Of a stretch of 32,000 nt of DNA, positions 5,208 to 32,000 are shown in pieces. Source of the DNA: an uncultured Actinomycetes bacterium. GTDB lineage: Bacteria > Actinomycetota > Actinomycetes > S36-B12 > CAIYMF01. The translations under genes and the position numbers were made by a program. The notes below the pieces were generated by a model, which saw only the letters and a program-made list of their open reading frames with translations, was not told the DNA's origin and ran no database searches. The DNA lies in assembly GCA_963843975.1 (NCBI GenBank), contig CAWJMG010000003.1, forward strand, positions 1,950,001 to 1,982,000. The letters are read 5' to 3'. Positions within the stretch are counted from its first letter, which is position 1. Every line of letters begins with the position of its first letter.

Positions 5208-6151
5208 GGACCGAGCGTAAGCAACGGGAGCCGCCGGTTCACCGCGTCCAGGGTCGCGCGCACCACGGCGCGGTGGACGTCGTCCCGCACCTCGGAGGCG
5301 CCCGTGAGCCGTTCGGACCCGATGTGCCGGCAGCACTCGACCTGCACGACGGCGACCTCAGCCTCGCCGACGTGCGGCACCGACACCGCCGTGACGGAGA
5401 ACGACTCCTCGCAGATGTGCAGAGTGGCGACCGCGCGCAGCGTTGCCAGCGCCACCGCCTCGAGCACGGCGGAGTCCGCGCTGCCGGACTCGGCGGAACC
5501 GCGCACCAGGCCGTCGGGGCCGTTCAGCGTGACGGTGGCCTGGGCACGGCGGTGGTCGAGCACGATCGACAGCCGAGCGATCGAGAGCCGGACCTCAGCG
5601 ACGTCCGCCTCGTCAGGAACAGTGCCGCGCGGCTCGGGGATGACGGTGGCGCCCGCCGGGTGGCGTACGGCGGCGGCGAGCACGTCGGCGTCGAACGAGC
5701 GGCCCGAGCGCCGGTCGAGCTCGGAGAGCAGGTCGTCGATCTGGACGCCGAGGTCGAACGCCTCGGACGGGCCGACGGCCTCGCCGCGGACCGATCGCAG
5801 CGGGCTGACGGCGGCATCGGTGATGTCCATGACGAGCTCGACGCCGTCGTCGTCGAGCCCGACGCCGTACTGCAGCTGCAGCATGCGGTGGACGGCGTAC
5901 GCGACCGCCGCCTCGTCGCCGTCGTCGGCGAGCACGAGGCGCACCTCGGTGCCGGTGTCCTCCGCCTCGCCGACCGACACCGTGGCCTCGAGGACGCCGG
6001 GCACGACGCGCAGGGCCTGCTCGACCTCGAGGGCCGGCGAGCCGCGACGGGCGTCCTTGTGCACGTCCTTCACGGTAGGGAGACGCGCGGATCGTTGCGC
6101 GGCGACACCCGGCAGTTGAGCGAGAAGACACACGAACGACCGGTCCCTCAC
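5204..6151 (-). CDS. conserved hypothetical protein (acidic, Ala/Val-rich; no family recognised)
   Basis: A 315-codon ORF with ordinary composition, unlike the Arg/Pro-rich alternative frames. Its stop overlaps the hydrolase start. The start is uncertain (GTG 6151 or GTG 6073) and neither has a clear SD. Confidence 0.6.
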   Translation of the reverse strand: MRDRSFVCLLAQLPGVAAQRSARLPTVKDVHKDARRGSPALEVEQALRVVPGVLEATVSVGEAEDTGTEVRLVLADDGDEAAVAYAVHRMLQLQYGVGLDDDGVELVMDITDAAVSPLRSVRGEAVGPSEAFDLGVQIDDLLSELDRRSGRSFDADVLAAAVRHPAGATVIPEPRGTVPDEADVAEVRLSIARLSIVLDHRRAQATVTLNGPDGLVRGSAESGSADSAVLEAVALATLRAVATLHICEESFSVTAVSVPHVGEAEVAVVQVECCRHIGSERLTGASEVRDDVHRAVVRATLDAVNRRLPLLTLGP

Positions 6152-6264
6152 CGGCGGTTCACCGCGTTCCGGTCACCGAGCGCTCACGACCGGTCGCCGA
6201 TCGGTGAGCGCCAACGTGCGCGGCGCCCGCCCCTCCGGGATTACCGCTCGGTAGGATCCCCCGC

Positions 6265-6900
6265 ATGTCAGTCGTGTCCGACGGCCGGGCCTCGTCCCGG
6301 GGTCAGCGCCTGCCGCGCCGCGAGCGCCGCGCGCAGCTGCTCGACGCCGCCCGCGAGGTCTTCGTCGCCCAGGGGTACCACTCGGCCGCGATGGACGACA
6401 TCGCCGAGGCTGCGGGGGTCAGCAAGCCGGTGCTGTACCAGCACTTCCCCGGCAAGCTCGACCTCTACCTCGCGCTCCTCGACCAGTCGAGCGACGCGCT
6501 CCTGGCATCCCTCGACTCCGCCCTCGCCTCCATCAGCGACAACAAGCTCCGCGTGTCGGCGACGGTCGAGGCCTACTTCGACTTCGTCGACGACCCGGGC
6601 GGCGCGTTCCGGCTGATCTTCGAGTCCGACCTCACCAACGAGCCGGGTGTCCGCACCCGTGTCGACCGCGCCAACGACGCGTGCGCCGCGTCCCTGTCCA
6701 AGGTCATCGCCGAGGACACCGGCCTCACCGACGCCGAGGCCACGCTGCTCGCCGCGGGCCTGCTCGGCATGGCCCAGACGGCCGCCCGCCACTGGCTGCG
6801 CGAGACCGGCCGCATCCCCAAGTCCGAGGCGGCGCGGCTCGTGGCCAGCCTCGGCTGGCGCGGCATCTCGAACTTCCCGCTCTCGCACCCCCCGGCCTGA
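6265..6900 (+). CDS. TetR/AcrR-family transcriptional regulator
   Basis: N-terminal TetR HTH RRAQLLDAAREVFVAQGYHSAAMDDIAEAAGVSKPVLYQHFPGKLDLY, 211 aa, ATG 6265. It is divergent from the hypothetical gene. Confidence 0.9.
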   Translation: MSVVSDGRASSRGQRLPRRERRAQLLDAAREVFVAQGYHSAAMDDIAEAAGVSKPVLYQHFPGKLDLYLALLDQSSDALLASLDSALASISDNKLRVSATVEAYFDFVDDPGGAFRLIFESDLTNEPGVRTRVDRANDACAASLSKVIAEDTGLTDAEATLLAAGLLGMAQTAARHWLRETGRIPKSEAARLVASLGWRGISNFPLSHPPA

Positions 6901-7029
6901 TCGGCGGCGTGGCGGCGCCTGCCGCTACGCCTACGGCGTACGCGGGCACCCTGGGGAAGCAGCAGGCGGCCCCGCCCGGTTAGGGTCGCGACAAGCAGTC
7001 ACGGTACGAACGAGCCAGGAGGCACCTCG

Positions 7030-27139: not shown

Positions 27140-27514
27140 TCAGGTGGCGTCGGGATCGAACGCGGTCTGCGTGGCCGGGGCGGCGGGGCCGGTGGCGCCG
27201 CGGACCGGTGCCGACGGCGCGGTCGGCTCAGCCGGTGCTGTCGAGGCGTCGACGTCGCTGAGGATCGAGGCGGCCAGGCGCCGGGGGTGCAGCTCGGCGA
27301 TGTCCTTGACCGACTGCTTGATCTCGTCGGTGATCGAGGGGTCGAGCTCGGCCGCGGCCACGATCTCGCGACGGGCGTTGGCCGCCTGGGTGCGCAGCAC
27401 GCGCGACCACTGGACGACCGAGGCGATGGCCTTGGGCAGCTTGTCCGGCCCCAGGATGAGCACGGCGATCACACCGATGACCAGCAGCTCCATCATGCCG
27501 ACGTCGCCGATCAC
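27140..27514 (-). CDS. tatB: Sec-independent (Tat) translocase component, TatB-like
   Basis: The N-terminus MIGDVGMMELLVIGVIAVLILGPDKLPKA is the TatA/B TM helix plus hinge (FGP/LGP-x-KLP), followed by an amphipathic helix. At 124 aa and downstream of htrA, it is positioned as in mycobacteria. GTG 27514 has GGAGG 7 nt upstream. Confidence 0.8.
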   Translation of the reverse strand: MIGDVGMMELLVIGVIAVLILGPDKLPKAIASVVQWSRVLRTQAANARREIVAAAELDPSITDEIKQSVKDIAELHPRRLAASILSDVDASTAPAEPTAPSAPVRGATGPAAPATQTAFDPDAT

Positions 27515-27536
27515 GTGCCCACCTCCATCCGGAACG

Positions 27537-27573
27537 CCTGAGGGCGCCGATCGTGATGATCGGCGCCCTCAGG
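27537..27573 (-). terminator. strong stem-loop between htrA and tatB
   Basis: CCTGAGGGCGCCGATC-gtgat-GATCGGCGCCCTCAGG forms a perfect 16-bp stem. On the minus strand it lies 11 nt after the htrA stop and 22 nt before the tatB start. There is no U-tract. Confidence 0.55.
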
Positions 27574-27584
27574 GTACGACCTGA

Positions 27585-28973
27585 TCAGCCGGACGAGGTG
27601 TCCGAGCCCAGCACGACGTCGACGTTGCGTACGCCGGTGCCGTCCTTGATGCCGATCGTGATGGTGTCGCCAGGCGCGTAGGTGCGGATGGCGACGATCA
27701 GCTCGGTGGAGTCCGAGACCGCGCGGCCGTTGACGTCGACGATGATGTCGCCCGTCTTGATGCCCGCCGCAGCCGCGGGGCCGCCCTCGGTGACGCCCGA
27801 GACCTGCGCGCCCTCGCCGGTGTACCGGCTGTCGACCTGGACGCCGATGACCGGGTGGGTCGAGGTGCCGCTGGAGATGATCTCCTCGGCGACGCGCTTG
27901 GCCTGGTTGATCGGGATGGCGAAGCCGAGGCCGATGGAGCCGGCCTGACCCGCACCCTGCGACAGGGAGGCGATGGCCGAGTTGACGCCGATGACCTTGC
28001 CCTCGGCGTCGAGCAGCGGGCCGCCCGAGTTTCCGGGGTTGATCGCGGCGTCGGTCTGGATCGCGTTGATGAACGAGTTCTCGCCCGAGCCGCCGGCGGT
28101 CACCGGGCGGTTCAGCGCGCTCACGATGCCCGCGGTCACGGTGCCCTCGAGGCCGAGCGGGGAGCCGACCGCGATGGTGGAGTCGCCGACGACGATGCCG
28201 TCGGAGTTGCCGAGGGTCGCGACCGGCAGGCCCGTCTTCTCGACCTTCACGACGGCGAGGTCGTACGACGTGTCGCGCCCGACGATCTTCGCGGGCACGG
28301 TCGTGCCGTCCTGGAAGCGGACCGTCAGGGTGCCGCCGGCCGCAGCGCCCTCGACCACGTGGTTGTTCGTGAGGATGTAGCCGTCCTGACGGATGATGAA
28401 GCCCGAGCCGGTGCCGCTTCCGCTGCTGCTCGTCTCCTCGATCTGGACGACGGTCGGCAGGACGGCGGCCGCCACCGAGGCGATCGATCCGCTCGGACGG
28501 GCCGACAGGTCGGCGTCGGTCTGCGGGATCGTCGCGCCGGCCGAGGTGAGCGAGCTGCTCGACCGGTTCTCGGCGATCGTGTAGCCGCCGACGCCGCCGA
28601 CGACGCCGGCGAGCAGGCCCGAGGCCACCGCGATGGCGACGACCTTGCCGGTGCCGCCGGTGCGCTGCTTGGTGCGGCCTGAGGGCGGTGCGTCCCAGGC
28701 CTCGGACGCGCCGAGGAGGGGCGGCTCGAAGCCGGGCACGGGCCCGGTGACGTAGGGGTCGTACCCGGTCGCTCCCGGGGCCGGCGGGCCGCTCACGCGC
28801 GCGGACGCGTCAGGGGCGGCGAACATCGTGGTGTCCTGCGCGTCGGCGGCGATGCCGCCCGACGGGACGACGACGGTGTCGGTGAGGTCGGTCGTGCCGG
28901 GCTGGTCGTGCACAGCCAGGGATCCGGTGCCCGGGGTGGGCTCGACCAGGTCCTGGGGTCGCTCGTCGCTCAT
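27585..28973 (-). CDS. htrA: membrane-anchored HtrA/DegP-family serine protease with a C-terminal PDZ domain
   Basis: Catalytic triad contexts ILTNNHVV (His), SYDLAVVKV (Asp) and INPGNSGGPLLD (Ser). TM helix VVAIAVASGLLAGVVGGVGGY. PDZ-like GAQVSGVTEGGPAAAAGIKTGDIIVDVNG. I preferred ATG 28973 (AGGAG 6 nt upstream), but ATG 29009 is an alternative. Confidence 0.92.
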   Translation of the reverse strand: MSDERPQDLVEPTPGTGSLAVHDQPGTTDLTDTVVVPSGGIAADAQDTTMFAAPDASARVSGPPAPGATGYDPYVTGPVPGFEPPLLGASEAWDAPPSGRTKQRTGGTGKVVAIAVASGLLAGVVGGVGGYTIAENRSSSSLTSAGATIPQTDADLSARPSGSIASVAAAVLPTVVQIEETSSSGSGTGSGFIIRQDGYILTNNHVVEGAAAGGTLTVRFQDGTTVPAKIVGRDTSYDLAVVKVEKTGLPVATLGNSDGIVVGDSTIAVGSPLGLEGTVTAGIVSALNRPVTAGGSGENSFINAIQTDAAINPGNSGGPLLDAEGKVIGVNSAIASLSQGAGQAGSIGLGFAIPINQAKRVAEEIISSGTSTHPVIGVQVDSRYTGEGAQVSGVTEGGPAAAAGIKTGDIIVDVNGRAVSDSTELIVAIRTYAPGDTITIGIKDGTGVRNVDVVLGSDTSSG

Positions 28974-29050
28974 GGGGTCTCCTGCGCGCTCGTCGTGGCG
29001 TGCATCCATCGTGTGTCTCTCTCCCGTGTGCGGACTGCGAGCAACCTGTG

Positions 29051-29077
29051 AACGTCCTGAGAAGGCTGGGTCTTCCC
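29051..29077 (-). promoter_or_regulatory. ECF (SigE-type) promoter candidate GGGAAG-N17-CGTT upstream of htrA
   Basis: The minus strand reads ACTGGGAAGACCCAGCCTTCTCAGGACGTTCACAGG. GGAAG is one mismatch from GGAAC, and a 17-nt spacer precedes CGTT. The site lies 42-104 nt upstream of the candidate htrA starts and just downstream of a hairpin. Confidence 0.5.
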
Positions 29078-29080
29078 AGT

Positions 29081-29105
29081 GTGCCGTCCGGTGCAGGGAC
29101 GGCAC
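29081..29105 (-). terminator. stem-loop after the LmeA-like gene
   Basis: GTGCCGTCC-ggtgcag-GGACGGCAC forms a 9-bp perfect stem 50 nt downstream of the stop at 29155. Confidence 0.45.
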
Positions 29106-29154
29106 GGCGGGCCGGCCGGTTGCGCTGCGGGCGCCGGACCCGTCGTGATGCCTG

Positions 29155-29818
29155 TCACTCGAGCGGCACGTCGGTGCCCGTCGCCGTCACCGTGACCCCA
29201 CCGGCGGTCACCGTCGCGGTCGACGGCGTGAGGCCGAAGGGCAGCTCGCCCACCGAACCGACCATGCGGTTCAGGGCCTCCTTCACGAAGTCCGGGACGC
29301 TGTCGCCCGACACCTCGACGCCGGCCAGTGCCAGCGTGCGGAGGTCCAGCGTGATCGCGCCGTCCGTCACGACGGGGGTCACCGTCGCCGAGATCGGGAG
29401 CGCTCCGGTGAACTCCGCCTTGAGCGCCTCGCCCTGTACCGACAGCTGCCAGCTGTCGCCGAGCTGGGCCTGCAGGGTCGAGAGGGGGACGTCGGCCGTG
29501 GCGCGGACCGTGCGCGCCGCACGGGGCGCCGAGGTCGAGACTCCGTACAGGTCGACGACGACCGAGTCGAGCGTGCCCTTCTCGGTGGGCACCTCCCGGG
29601 CCGTGACGGTCACGTGGTCGAGCGAGCCACCGACGACCTGGGTGAGCGCGGGGAAGCCCTCGATCGACGTGGTGACGTCGGTGGCGCCCGGGAAGCTCGG
29701 CCTGGACGCGCTCGGAGACCGTGCGCTCAGCGACGCCTACGGCCACGCGGTCGGCTACCACGGCCAGGCCGCCGAGCACGAGGAGGACGACGAGCGCGAT
29801 CACGCCGCCGCGCTTCAC
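29155..29818 (-). pseudogene. DUF2993/LmeA-family (phospholipid-binding) protein gene interrupted by a +1-nt frameshift in CCCGGG 29687-29692
   Basis: GTG 29818 opens VKRGGVIALVVLLVLGGLAVVADRVAVGVAERTVSERVQAELPG (TM anchor plus DUF2993 start). The family sequence continues one nucleotide out of frame (GATDVTTSIEGFPALTQVVGGSLDHVTVTAREVPTEKG...GGVTVTATGTDVPLE, stop 29155). The span of 664 nt equals 3n+1. The GTG overlaps the TGA of the upstream gene (GTGA 29815-29818). Confidence 0.75.
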
Positions 29819-30969
29819 GAGCCTCCCCCGGTGACGCGGTGCCAGCCCCGGGCCACGCGCCCGAAGAACGAGTCGTCGACAGACGCGACCGGCGGCGGCA
29901 GGGCCGAGAGCACAGACCGCGCAACGGTCATGGGGGCGAGCGCGTCGTCGGTGACGAGGGTGAGCACGGAGTCGTCGCACTCCCACACGACGGTGGCCGT
30001 GGAGGCCGGTGCCCGGCCGCCGCGCACCCAGGCTGCGAGGCCCGCGAGGTCGGTGAACGCGAACCCGCGAGCCTTGAGGCCCTCCGTGTCGCTGTCGGAC
30101 AGCGACCCCGGCAGCGTGAACAGCGAGGCGCTCACGAGCCCGTCCGAGAAGAGCTGGTGGATGACGGGGACGGCGCCGACCGAGCCGGCCGGCGCGCGAC
30201 GGGTCTCGACGAGCGTGAGGCCGCCGGGGAGGGAGTCGGGGCAGTCGCAGCCGGCCTGTCGGGCGGCCCGCAGGCCCGCGGCGTCGAGCTCGCCGCCCCA
30301 GGGGTCGTCAGCCTGCGTCGCCTCGGCACGGGCGACCGCGGCGGTGTCGGCCGACAGCACGATGGAGTCGAAGCCCGAGCGCACCCGGACGGCGCCCGTC
30401 GCATCGACGAGCTCCTTGCGCAGCAGCAGGCTCGTCGCGCTGTCGATCCAGTAGCGGGCAGCGGTCTCGCCGTCGGCCCCCACGGCCACGACCGCCTCCG
30501 CAGGGCGGCCGGCCACGGTGGCGTCCAGGTCGGCCTGACGGAGCACGCGGTAGTTGATGCGAAGGAGGTCGAGCTGGCGTCCCTCGTCGGCGAACGAGCC
30601 GCTGCGGCCGTCGGCCGCGAACACGGGCTGGCTCAGGGTGTCCGAGATGACGGTGGTCAGCGTCCCGCGGCCGGGCGCGTGCACGAGCGTGGTGCTCATG
30701 CGGCCGGCGCCGTCCTCGGCCGTCACCCGTCCTGAGTAGGCGACGGTGCTGGACGCCTTCGCGGAGCGCTGCAGCAGCTGGACGGCCACCTCGTCGTCGG
30801 GGGTCATCGCGTCCTTGTCGGACACCGACACGGCGTCGACGGAGCCGGTCCAGCCGGCCCAGCCGTCGCCGGTCGCCTGCACCTGCGAGCCGCCCACGGC
30901 GGACAGCGCGCAGAGCACGAGGACCGCCGTACCGGCAGCACCGGTCACGACGAGAAGGCGAACGCTCAC
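29815..30969 (-). CDS. MucB/RseB-like sigma-E regulatory protein (exported)
   Basis: 384 aa with an N-terminal signal/anchor (LLVVTGAAGTAVLVLCALSAVGG). It shows RseB-like blocks: LLQRSAKASSTVAYSGRV (compare E. coli LLQQMNLASQSLNYELSF), NYRVL...VAGRPAEAVVAVGADGETAARYWIDSATSLLLRKELVDATGAVRVRSGF (compare YYDFI...IADRLCEVIRVVARDGTRYSYIVWMDTESKLPMRVDLLDRDGETLEQF), and LPGGLTLVETRR...HQLFSDGLVSASLF (compare LPQGFSEVSSSRR...SRLYSDGLFSFSV). Confidence 0.75.
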   Translation of the reverse strand: MSVRLLVVTGAAGTAVLVLCALSAVGGSQVQATGDGWAGWTGSVDAVSVSDKDAMTPDDEVAVQLLQRSAKASSTVAYSGRVTAEDGAGRMSTTLVHAPGRGTLTTVISDTLSQPVFAADGRSGSFADEGRQLDLLRINYRVLRQADLDATVAGRPAEAVVAVGADGETAARYWIDSATSLLLRKELVDATGAVRVRSGFDSIVLSADTAAVARAEATQADDPWGGELDAAGLRAARQAGCDCPDSLPGGLTLVETRRAPAGSVGAVPVIHQLFSDGLVSASLFTLPGSLSDSDTEGLKARGFAFTDLAGLAAWVRGGRAPASTATVVWECDDSVLTLVTDDALAPMTVARSVLSALPPPVASVDDSFFGRVARGWHRVTGGGS

Positions 30970-30979
30970 GTCAGGGATC

Positions 30980-31591
30980 TCACGGCCGGTCGGACGAGCC
31001 GGACCCGCTGTCGTACGCCGCGGTGATGACGAGCGGCCCGGAGAACGGCATGCGCTGCGTGGAGGCCGAGTGCTCGTCGGCGAGGGCGTCGACGACGGGG
31101 GCGATCGAGGACGAGGCCGCAGGGGCCGGACCGCTCACGGCCGCGGGAGCGCCGCCGACCACGGCAGCCATCGCCAGAACGGCCACACCCGCAGCCGAGC
31201 CGACAGCGGTGCGGACGCGCCTGCGGCGGCTCGCGGGGCGGCTGGACGGCACCGGGGCGCCGGGTCGTACGCCGGCCGAGCCAGCGGGACGGGAAGCGCC
31301 CTGGACCGGCACGACGGGCGGGACGAACGGGCGCGCGGCCTCGGTCTCGGCGGCCGGGATGCCGAGCAGGCGGGCCATGAAGTCGTCAGACGGACCGGGC
31401 GCGGGCGTCTCGAGCGCGGCGGACGCAGCCCGCTCGGCGTCGAGCGCGACGCGGCAGCGGTCGCAGACGGCCACGTGCGCGAACGCCGTCTCGGTGTCCG
31501 CGGGCGAGAGCCGGCCGTCGGCGAGGTCGGCGACGCGGTCGCCGAGGCAGCCGCCGTTCGGGCGGCCAGGGAGGCCCGGGAGAACGGTCAC
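30980..31591 (-). CDS. rseA: zf-HC2 anti-sigma factor (RseA-like), single-pass membrane protein
   Basis: H-x3-C-x2-C motif ([11 protein letters not shown]) sits near the N-terminus, with a central TM segment ([18 protein letters not shown]). GTG 31591 overlaps the sigE TGA (GTGA 31588-31591). Confidence 0.8.
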
Positions 31592-32000
31592 GTCGTGCCC
31601 CCTGCGGCGTCGTGGCCGAGCGGGAAGCGGACGGCGGTCTTGGGGGTGCGGTGAGCCAGCGCCTGACGCAGCGCGGCCCGGCCGCGGTGGATGCGCGAGC
31701 GCACCGTGCCGAGCTTGATGCCGAGGAGGTCCGAGATCTCCTCGTACGTCATGCCCTCGACGTCGCACAGCACCACGGCCACCCGGAAGTCCGGGTGCAG
31801 GGCGTCGAGCGCGCTCTGCACGTCGGCGTCGTACGCGCGGTCGTCGAGCAGCTGCTGCGGCCCGACCTCGCGGGACGGGATGCGGTCGGCAGCGTCGTCG
31901 GGCAGCCCGTCGAACCGGATCCTGGCCTTGCGGCGGACCTGGTCGAGGAAGAGGTTGGTGGTGATGCGGTGCAGCCAGCCCTCGAAGCTTCCCGGGCGTG
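31588..32000 (-). CDS. sigE: ECF RNA polymerase sigma factor SigE, C-terminal ~137 aa (5' end beyond the window)
   Basis: The frame is open to the window edge. Region 2 is [24 protein letters not shown]. Region 4 is [44 protein letters not shown]. It is followed by the anti-sigma gene. Confidence 0.9.

Follow-up and report, generated by a model that had tools for sequence, protein, structure and literature searches.

A putative SigE envelope-stress module with an RseB/MucB homolog in a high-GC actinomycete related to Longivirga

A cluster of six genes built around sigE, which encodes an extracytoplasmic function (ECF) sigma factor, is located at one end of a 32,000-nucleotide stretch of DNA from an uncultured Actinomycetes bacterium (assembly GCA_963843975.1, contig CAWJMG010000003.1, positions 1,950,001 to 1,982,000; this whole stretch is called the window below), whose G+C content is 70-76%. 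sigE and its anti-sigma factor gene are followed by genes for a homolog of RseB/MucB, an LmeA-like lipid-binding protein, an HtrA-family protease, and TatB. The interpretation that we favor, with a confidence slightly above even, is that the locus is a SigE envelope-stress module in which the RseB homolog forms a shield on the tail of the anti-sigma factor, and that it is intact in the organism, a high-GC actinomycete near Longivirga. What is observed directly are the RseB homology, the gene order, the topology predicted from sequence, a tail motif that accompanies RseB, and natural fusions of the anti-sigma factor with an RseB-like domain.

The RseB-like gene (29815-30969, minus strand) encodes a protein of 384 amino acids, for which an initial annotation of this DNA had proposed a block-by-block correspondence with E. 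coli RseB. This homology was borne out by profile searches as well as by the predicted fold. The LolA-like N-terminal domain (PF03888, MucB_RseB N domain) was recognized with 28.9 bits, above its cut-off of 22.3, and reached 24.5 bits when the genome was scanned; the C-terminal domain model (PF17188, MucB_RseB_C) gave 19.8 bits, under its cut-off of 30.1. The phmmer alignment to E. coli RseB crosses the domain junction and includes the LP.G and SDGL motifs; these matches and the one to the NCBIfam RseB model are weak but consistent. When a profile of 17 homologs (alignment A1) was compared with the PDB, MucB was matched at 1.9e-10 (query 59-288) and RseB at 1.8e-9. The AlphaFold2 (AF2) model of the protein has a predicted local distance difference test score (pLDDT) of 77.9, and its 15 best matches in a Foldseek search were all RseB or MucB (E 7.7e-15, about 320 columns over both domains), after which followed LolA, LolB-like, and LprG lipid carriers. 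Many of the database homologs carry the JGI label 'sigma-E factor negative regulatory protein RseB'. Judged by these profiles and by the model, the third protein of the cluster is a genuine RseB/MucB homolog, probably with both domains. Its export is predicted from a hydrophobic N-terminal signal or anchor at residues 5-27, which follows a basic residue.

Both termini of the protein deserve a separate remark. Close to the C-terminus, residues 371-382 (29824-29859) form a conserved basic helix, F..RV.RGWHR.TGG, in a region where the model has low confidence, and a counterpart of this helix (RLG.GL.R) is kept in the fusion family described below. At the N-terminus, many homologs (for example P0023, P0033, P0042, and P0046) start with M-[ST]-R-R-x-hydrophobic, which is reminiscent of twin-arginine signals, and a tatB gene is constantly found nearby; the protein encoded in the window starts with MSVRLLVV and thus has one Arg only.

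The presumed partners of the RseB homolog are encoded directly upstream. sigE (31588-32000, minus strand) runs off the window edge, with its ATG about 269 nucleotides further on, and the N-terminal part was read in locus L002. The 136-amino-acid fragment inside the window matches the NCBIfam SigE model NF007229 at 1.5e-61 and 207.6 bits, the 265-bit cut-off of that model being meant for the full-length protein, and Sigma70_r4_2 at 3.4e-17. It was assigned to the SigE/ECF14 type on the basis of actinobacterial SigE orthology together with the downstream gene for a zinc-associated anti-sigma (ZAS) factor, htrA, and tatB. The anti-sigma factor (30980-31591, minus strand; 203 amino acids) is predicted from its sequence to consist of a zinc-binding part with the pattern C15...H39-x3-C43-x2-C46, a single transmembrane helix at residues 126-147, and an extracytoplasmic tail of about 56 amino acids. 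The match to zf-HC2 (5e-4, 20.5 bits) is slightly below the 22.2 cut-off, and both the motif and the position of the gene agree with it. A Pfam scan of the protein found zf-HC2 only and neither RseA_N nor RseA_C; by sequence it belongs to the ZAS class I anti-sigma factors and is no relative of RseA or MucA. The same architecture recurs in about 100 related loci, where the gene after sigE combines H-x3-C-x2-C with one transmembrane helix and an outside tail of typically 37-75 residues.

It is this tail that sets the RseB-linked anti-sigma factors apart. When the tails of 89 RseB-linked loci were aligned, they were found to share a motif of approximately GG..P.P.V.P.VD.[FY]..[EQ]H....G..P, which spans 24 residues in the window (31034-31105, minus strand) and is a candidate docking site for the RseB-like protein. 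A profile was built from one half of the RseB-linked tails and scored on the held-out half as well as on tails from loci without RseB. The scores of the 45 held-out tails lay in the range of 9-69 bits, with 44 tails reaching at least 22 bits, whereas none of the 11 tails from RseB-less sigE loci exceeded 4.1 bits. The motif is thus specific to RseB-linked anti-sigma factors, in the sense of an association among related genomes that falls short of statistical proof. Where RseB is missing, the anti-sigma factor either has a longer, unrelated tail of up to about 170 residues or is soluble. The soluble form, a ZAS protein of 128-157 amino acids that has no transmembrane helix and is followed by htrA and tatB, corresponds to the M. 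tuberculosis arrangement and was seen in L133, L134, and L135, which belong to one family with genomes of 5-7.5 Mb; among the approximately 49 sigE loci of the class sample that were inspected (see below) it is limited to that family, and the remaining anti-sigma factors span the membrane. A different kind of tail was noted in four loci from genomes of 7.5-9.2 Mb (L092, L094, L099, and L103), where the tails of the SigE-linked ZAS proteins are 150-170 residues long and contain much Ser, Gly, Thr, and Pro and where no RseB-like gene was present within the approximately 400-800 nucleotides examined downstream. Such tails suggest a different outside sensor in these RseB-less anti-sigma factors.

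The partnership between the anti-sigma factor and the RseB-like protein is underlined by genes in which both are joined. In six loci (L034, positions 5446-6939; L036; L081; L070; L077; and L088), a single open reading frame (ORF) that overlaps sigE by four nucleotides encodes, in this order, H-x3-C-x2-C at residue 27, a transmembrane helix, the tail motif, and an RseB-like domain. A seventh candidate, the 642-amino-acid ORF of L038 (5023-6951) with a ZAS N-terminus and an RseB-like domain, has a middle stretch that is apparently out of frame; it is doubtful and may stem from accidental read-through or from an error in the sequence. When one of the fusions was used as a database query, at least 115 clusters were returned, with lengths of about 490-500 amino acids, full coverage, and both PF13490 and PF03888, mostly from metagenome-assembled genomes of Nocardioidaceae and Propionibacteriales, which NCBI names 'sigma-E factor regulatory protein RseB domain-containing protein'. 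Several linker positions of the fusions are invariant or nearly so (V117, P119, A126, F128, L137, D139, and P140). In the AF2 model of the L034 fusion (65 sequences, pLDDT 83.7), the motif residues 111-140 reach a pLDDT of 87-93 and form a two-residue beta-bridge and a helix, and the flanks are disordered, with a pLDDT of about 40 at residues 71-90 and of 42-64 at residues 141-180. In this model, an ordered motif between disordered linkers has the appearance that would be expected of a short segment docked on a folded domain. The best fold match of the fusion model was MucB crystallized with MucA(peri).

How widely the arrangement is distributed was addressed at several taxonomic levels. A scan of 185,579 species genomes gave 245 relatives, of which the best 80 loci were kept. 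The closest named organism is Longivirga aurantiaca with 76% identity, and more distant holders include Streptosporangium, Nonomuraea, Sporichthyaceae, Frankiales, and Nocardioidaceae. In every one of these 80 RseB-anchored loci that has enough upstream sequence, the order is sigE, anti-sigma factor gene, RseB-like gene, commonly with overlaps of four nucleotides. SigE and RseB-like genes were then counted in 120 genomes drawn evenly from the same class. A SigE orthologue (58-75% identity, one outlier at 50%) is present in 84 of the 120 genomes, and the RseB-like gene was first detected in 43, all of which bear SigE; one more (G493) was added on direct inspection, which raises the count to at least 44. 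As for its position, 40 of the 43 RseB-like genes follow sigE in the same orientation at a distance of 0.5-1.4 kb, and the other three are on separate small contigs of fragmented assemblies. Outside the class, sigE is followed by a gap of the size of an anti-sigma factor gene and then by the RseB-like gene in nine loci that represent other classes of the phylum; the tail motif was detected in the gap in six of the nine, and htrA and tatB come next in seven. The full gene order is also seen in L131, which belongs to the same class. A phylum-wide alignment search, in which four candidates were scored per genome, counted 27 of 401 genomes, which is a lower bound. The co-occurrence of the RseB-like gene with sigE, one of the checks proposed with the initial annotation, is thus near-exceptionless, and the RseB-containing arrangement is, on this sequence evidence, common and probably old in actinobacteria. 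The description of the cluster as expanded relative to the mycobacterial one has to be divided accordingly: it does not apply to RseB, which is found in about half of the sampled SigE-bearing genomes and in other classes too, and it does apply to LmeA, which is clade-specific.

The LmeA-like gene (29155-29818, minus strand) encodes a protein with a predicted transmembrane anchor and a TULIP-type lipid-binding domain, in two reading frames as printed. Its assignment to the DUF2993/LmeA family was upheld by a match of 80.4 bits and 3.9e-22 to the Pfam profile (PF11209, profile positions 25-217 of 217) when the genome is read through the frame change, the downstream frame alone giving 46 bits. 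It is the sole DUF2993 gene of the genome. Of the 80 RseB-anchored loci, 17 have an LmeA-like gene, and every one of these belongs to the closest clade (L003-L019; RseB identity of at least 38%); the gene is a lineage-specific addition confined to that clade.

The rest of the cluster consists of the HtrA and TatB genes. As the initial annotation had described, the ORF listing and direct reading place each of the six coding regions on the minus strand, the GTGA overlaps of sigE with the anti-sigma factor gene (31588-31591) and of the RseB-like with the LmeA-like gene (29815-29818) are present, and 10 nucleotides (30970-30979) separate the anti-sigma factor gene from the RseB-like gene. The further statement that the genes are tightly packed is true of sigE and the anti-sigma factor, RseB-like, and LmeA-like genes and not of the last two, since about 145 nucleotides lie between the LmeA stop codon and the likely htrA ATG and about 70 between htrA and tatB. 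The larger gap holds a 9-bp hairpin (29081-29105, minus strand) and an ECF-type promoter-like element, GGGAAG-N17-CGTT (29051-29077, minus strand), and the cluster therefore probably comprises more than one transcription unit. The element is kept near letter for letter in Longivirga aurantiaca (L004:7891-7917) and was found in only 2 of the 50 loci; taken by itself it lacks significance, as at least one match occurs in 46 of 100 shuffles of the window. tatB (27140-27514, minus strand) encodes a twin-arginine translocase subunit (TatA_B_E 24.8 bits, cut-off 21; TIGR01410 tatB 56.1 bits, cut-off 56.5). An O-methyltransferase gene is divergently oriented upstream of sigE and mrp follows beyond tatB, and the M. 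tuberculosis neighborhood Rv1220c-Rv1229c is laid out likewise, with the O-methyltransferase gene upstream and mrp nearby.

The protease gene htrA (27585-29009, minus strand) likely starts at the ATG at 29009 behind GGGAGAGAG, which gives 474 amino acids, and the longest ORF extends to 29105. The protein is predicted to have a cytoplasmic N-terminus, a transmembrane helix at residues 123-145, a trypsin-like domain (Trypsin_2, 3.7e-36), and one PDZ domain (PDZ_2, 1e-14), and the motifs of the His/Asp/Ser catalytic triad are present (TNNH, YDLA, and GNSGGP). Its best matches are the general Do/HtrA subfamily and the NCBIfam model of mycobacterial HtrA (1.8e-80, below the equivalog cut-off). Because the score against the DegS model TIGR02038 (163 bits) is far below its equivalog cut-off of 423, the protease is filed by sequence in the HtrA family and not as DegS. 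Two genes for M50 site-2 proteases are found in the genome. htrA is missing from about 21 RseB-linked loci, which is about a quarter; there, tatB is directly next, and RseB stays with sigE and the anti-sigma factor gene.

Taken together, the following scheme can be proposed. SigE would be held at the membrane by the single-pass ZAS anti-sigma factor, and the RseB/MucB homolog would bind, on the outer face of the membrane, to the conserved juxtamembrane tail and thereby shield the anti-sigma factor from cutting. By analogy with RseB and MucB, a hydrophobic ligand derived from the envelope or a damage signal may release the RseB-like protein, after which a site-1 protease, for which the membrane-anchored HtrA with its single PDZ domain is the obvious candidate, would cut the anti-sigma factor; an M50 site-2 protease would cut next and free SigE. 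The LmeA-like protein may add a second lipid-handling input or be a co-expressed output. In this scheme, we infer the physical binding, its protective direction, the identity of the protease, and the ligand, and the sensing of envelope lipids by the RseB-like protein is a reasonable hypothesis. The initial annotation went further in stating that the locus contains all parts of the proteobacterial switch. This is to be taken as an analogy only, for the ZAS anti-sigma factor is not RseA and many RseB-linked loci lack htrA.

Several points weigh against the shielded SigE module. The C-terminal domain of the RseB-like protein scores below the cut-off of its own family, and a contact between the tail and the RseB domain was deduced from the pLDDT and the secondary structure of a model. 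The link between the tail motif and RseB was drawn from related, non-independent genomes, and what is known of the SigE-module function of actinobacterial RseB-like proteins comes from sequences and models. Because the anti-sigma factor is unrelated to RseA and MucA outside the cell, the docking mode of the crystal structures is not transferable. As these organisms lack lipopolysaccharide (LPS) and an outer membrane, the ligand must be another one than in Gram-negative bacteria. HtrA need not be the site-1 protease, given that it is absent from about a quarter of the RseB-linked loci and that its gene has a hairpin and a promoter-like element of its own here. SsdC of Bacillus subtilis shows that an RseB-like domain can act outside sigma-factor control (PMC7769602). 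Finally, the view that the frameshifts discussed below are artefacts is drawn from assembled sequences.

In the sequence as printed, the reading frames of sigE and of the LmeA-like gene are interrupted, which raises the question of whether the locus is decaying in this strain. In sigE, the frame changes at CCCGGGAAGCTTCG (31984-31996, minus strand), where direct reading finds an extra base in CCCGGGAAGCTTC on a palindromic GAAGCTTC site; region 2 is thereby separated from region 4 in the assembly, and the translation ...SLSQYTPG resumes in frame after the one extra base. In the LmeA-like gene, a +1 frame change occurs at CTTCCCGGGCGCC (29687-29697; CCCGGGAAGCT on the plus strand). The ORF from the GTG at 29818 consists of 44 sensible codons (VKRGG...ERVQAELPG) followed by nonsense, and the DUF2993 body continues in the +1 frame as ATDVTTSIEGFPALTQ down to 29155. 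The 11-mer CCCGGGAAGCT is common to both breaks on opposite strands, with two copies in the window against 0.02 expected, and within the 4.9-kb cluster GAAGCT occurs at the two breaks only (29692-29697 and 31984-31991). Across the whole genome, the coding phase on either side of each site was called from the G+C content of third codon positions. At the 1568 GAAGCT sites, 85 +1 jumps (5.4%) and 13 -1 jumps (0.8%) were counted, whereas random positions and control hexamers alike gave a background of about 1.3-1.6%. Among the 87 GGGAAGCT sites, the +1 jumps rise to 12 (13.8%), and no -1 jump occurs. The shifted sites are mostly GAAGCTC or GAAGCTTC. The relatives L003, L004, and L005 have sigE and the LmeA-like gene each in one frame and are one base shorter exactly at the lmeA break. 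Because +1 jumps concentrate genome-wide at GAAGCT and the relatives are intact, the breaks are, as far as sequence can tell, most likely context-specific single-base insertion errors of the assembly, with both genes intact. Real insertions, which would leave the strain without SigE and the cluster as a relic, agree with the two frameshifts in the sequence as given and with a genome completeness of 92.9%, and are nevertheless quite improbable in view of the clustering at one hexamer, which marks a systematic consensus error, and of the good conservation in which both halves of each gene still read as protein. Programmed frameshifting or transcriptional slippage was rejected as an explanation for the two genes, as a slippery run is absent and one hexamer shows the same jump throughout the genome. 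Modification of a GAGCT(C) motif is perhaps where the insertion error arises. In this genome, whose assembly consists of three contigs, many of the apparent pseudogenes are probably due to consensus errors at GAAGCT sites as well.

If the genes are intact, the role of the RseB-like protein may still be another one. The RseB-like and LmeA-like proteins might be outputs of SigE, that is, LolA-like and TULIP-like carriers or chaperones of lipids, lipoglycans, or lipoproteins in the envelope, whose co-transcription with sigE would serve to raise their amounts during stress and would leave the anti-sigma factor unaffected. SigE operons are commonly autoregulated, and the fold matches that come next after RseB/MucB are lipid carriers. 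In addition, M. smegmatis LmeA, a periplasmic protein of the TULIP type that binds phospholipid and is induced by stress, stabilizes a mannosyltransferase (PMC7643837). An output role is quite possible for the LmeA-like gene alone; for both proteins it is unlikely, if a serious contender, because it leaves unexplained why an RseB domain is fused to the anti-sigma factor in at least 115 clusters, why the tail motif goes with RseB, and why the RseB-like gene has a near-obligate place after the anti-sigma factor gene with overlapping starts and stops. These same observations establish a partnership without its direction and would also suit a positive sensor, in which the signal-bound form presents the tail to the protease or stabilizes an active state, so that its loss would lower SigE activity; a fused domain cannot diffuse away and needs a conformational switch anyway. 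Such a reversed sign, of which nothing in this analysis gives an indication, is rather improbable given that the studied members RseB and MucB are both negative regulators (PMC8671199). Least credible, and only just worth listing, is a structural or morphogenetic role outside sigma-factor control. Its precedent is the ring-forming SsdC, a membrane-anchored MucB/RseB-like protein of a monoderm that affects spore shape (PMC7769602). SsdC, however, is not encoded with a sigma/anti-sigma pair, whereas here the linkage is near-invariant and fusions occur.

A literature search for RseB or MucB in actinobacteria found no study, which agrees with the earlier remark that an envelope-lipid-sensing input to SigE is not established for this group. 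In the ECF reclassification paper, RseB is mentioned for ECF02 only (PMC7826278), and the association may be tabulated in the gene-neighborhood supplements of that work. RseB homologs have already been annotated automatically, and what is new here are the RseB-linked tail motif, the fusion clusters, and the clade-restricted LmeA gene. In Gram-negative bacteria, RseB and MucB are textbook examples of proteins that sense LPS and lipid signals, and a conserved homolog wired to SigE in bacteria that have no LPS raises the question of the signal, for which intermediates of lipid II, lipoglycans, or lipoproteins are candidates. We tentatively put forward, as a possibility that falls clearly short of even, that RseB-type sensing of hydrophobic intermediates is the ancestral SigE input in Actinomycetota, docked on or fused to the ZAS tail, joined in this clade by an LmeA-type binder, and gating the release of SigE, with the soluble RseA of mycobacteria as a later simplification. 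If this were true, the RseB mechanism would not be tied to LPS or an outer membrane. The analysis also suggests that the picture of SigE control obtained from M. tuberculosis with its soluble RseA is atypical of the phylum. The natural fusions and the short conserved tail motif are ready-made constructs for experiments.

Among known systems, those of E. coli (RpoE-RseA-RseB, with RseC) and P. aeruginosa (AlgU-MucA-MucB) share with the locus the order of an ECF sigma factor, a single-pass anti-sigma factor, and an exported RseB/MucB protein. A single-PDZ membrane protease of the HtrA family and M50 site-2 proteases are likewise available, corresponding to DegS, AlgW, and RseP. In contrast to these systems, the anti-sigma factor is of the ZAS (zf-HC2) type with a tail of about 50 amino acids, htrA lies in cis and its product is no DegS equivalog, and the anti-sigma factor and RseB are one polypeptide in some actinobacterial lineages; rseC of E. 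coli has no counterpart here. The ZAS-RseB fusions of Nocardioidaceae and Propionibacteriales have the same position in the sigE locus, the same tail motif, and an RseB-like domain, and differ in being one polypeptide of about 490-500 amino acids, whereas the window has two genes. B. subtilis SsdC is comparable in that its RseB-like domain is anchored in the membrane and its host has no outer membrane, yet SsdC has no sigma/anti-sigma linkage and acts in sporulation. The LmeA-like protein resembles LmeA of M. smegmatis in its Pfam family (80 bits), envelope location, and link to stress, but mycobacterial lmeA lies outside the sigE locus and its known role is the support of lipomannan synthesis via MptA. 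A further parallel is the sigE (Rv1221)-rseA-htrA-tatB locus of M. tuberculosis, in which a SigE orthologue and a ZAS anti-sigma factor are encoded ahead of htrA and tatB, as they are here. There, SigE belongs to ECF14, and RseA is described as a soluble protein that is regulated by redox and through ClpC1P2 proteolysis dependent on phosphorylation (PMC8999054). By contrast, the anti-sigma factor spans the membrane here and in most of the sampled actinomycetes, about half of which have an RseB-like partner, and the M. tuberculosis version looks like a reduced form of the SigE operon.

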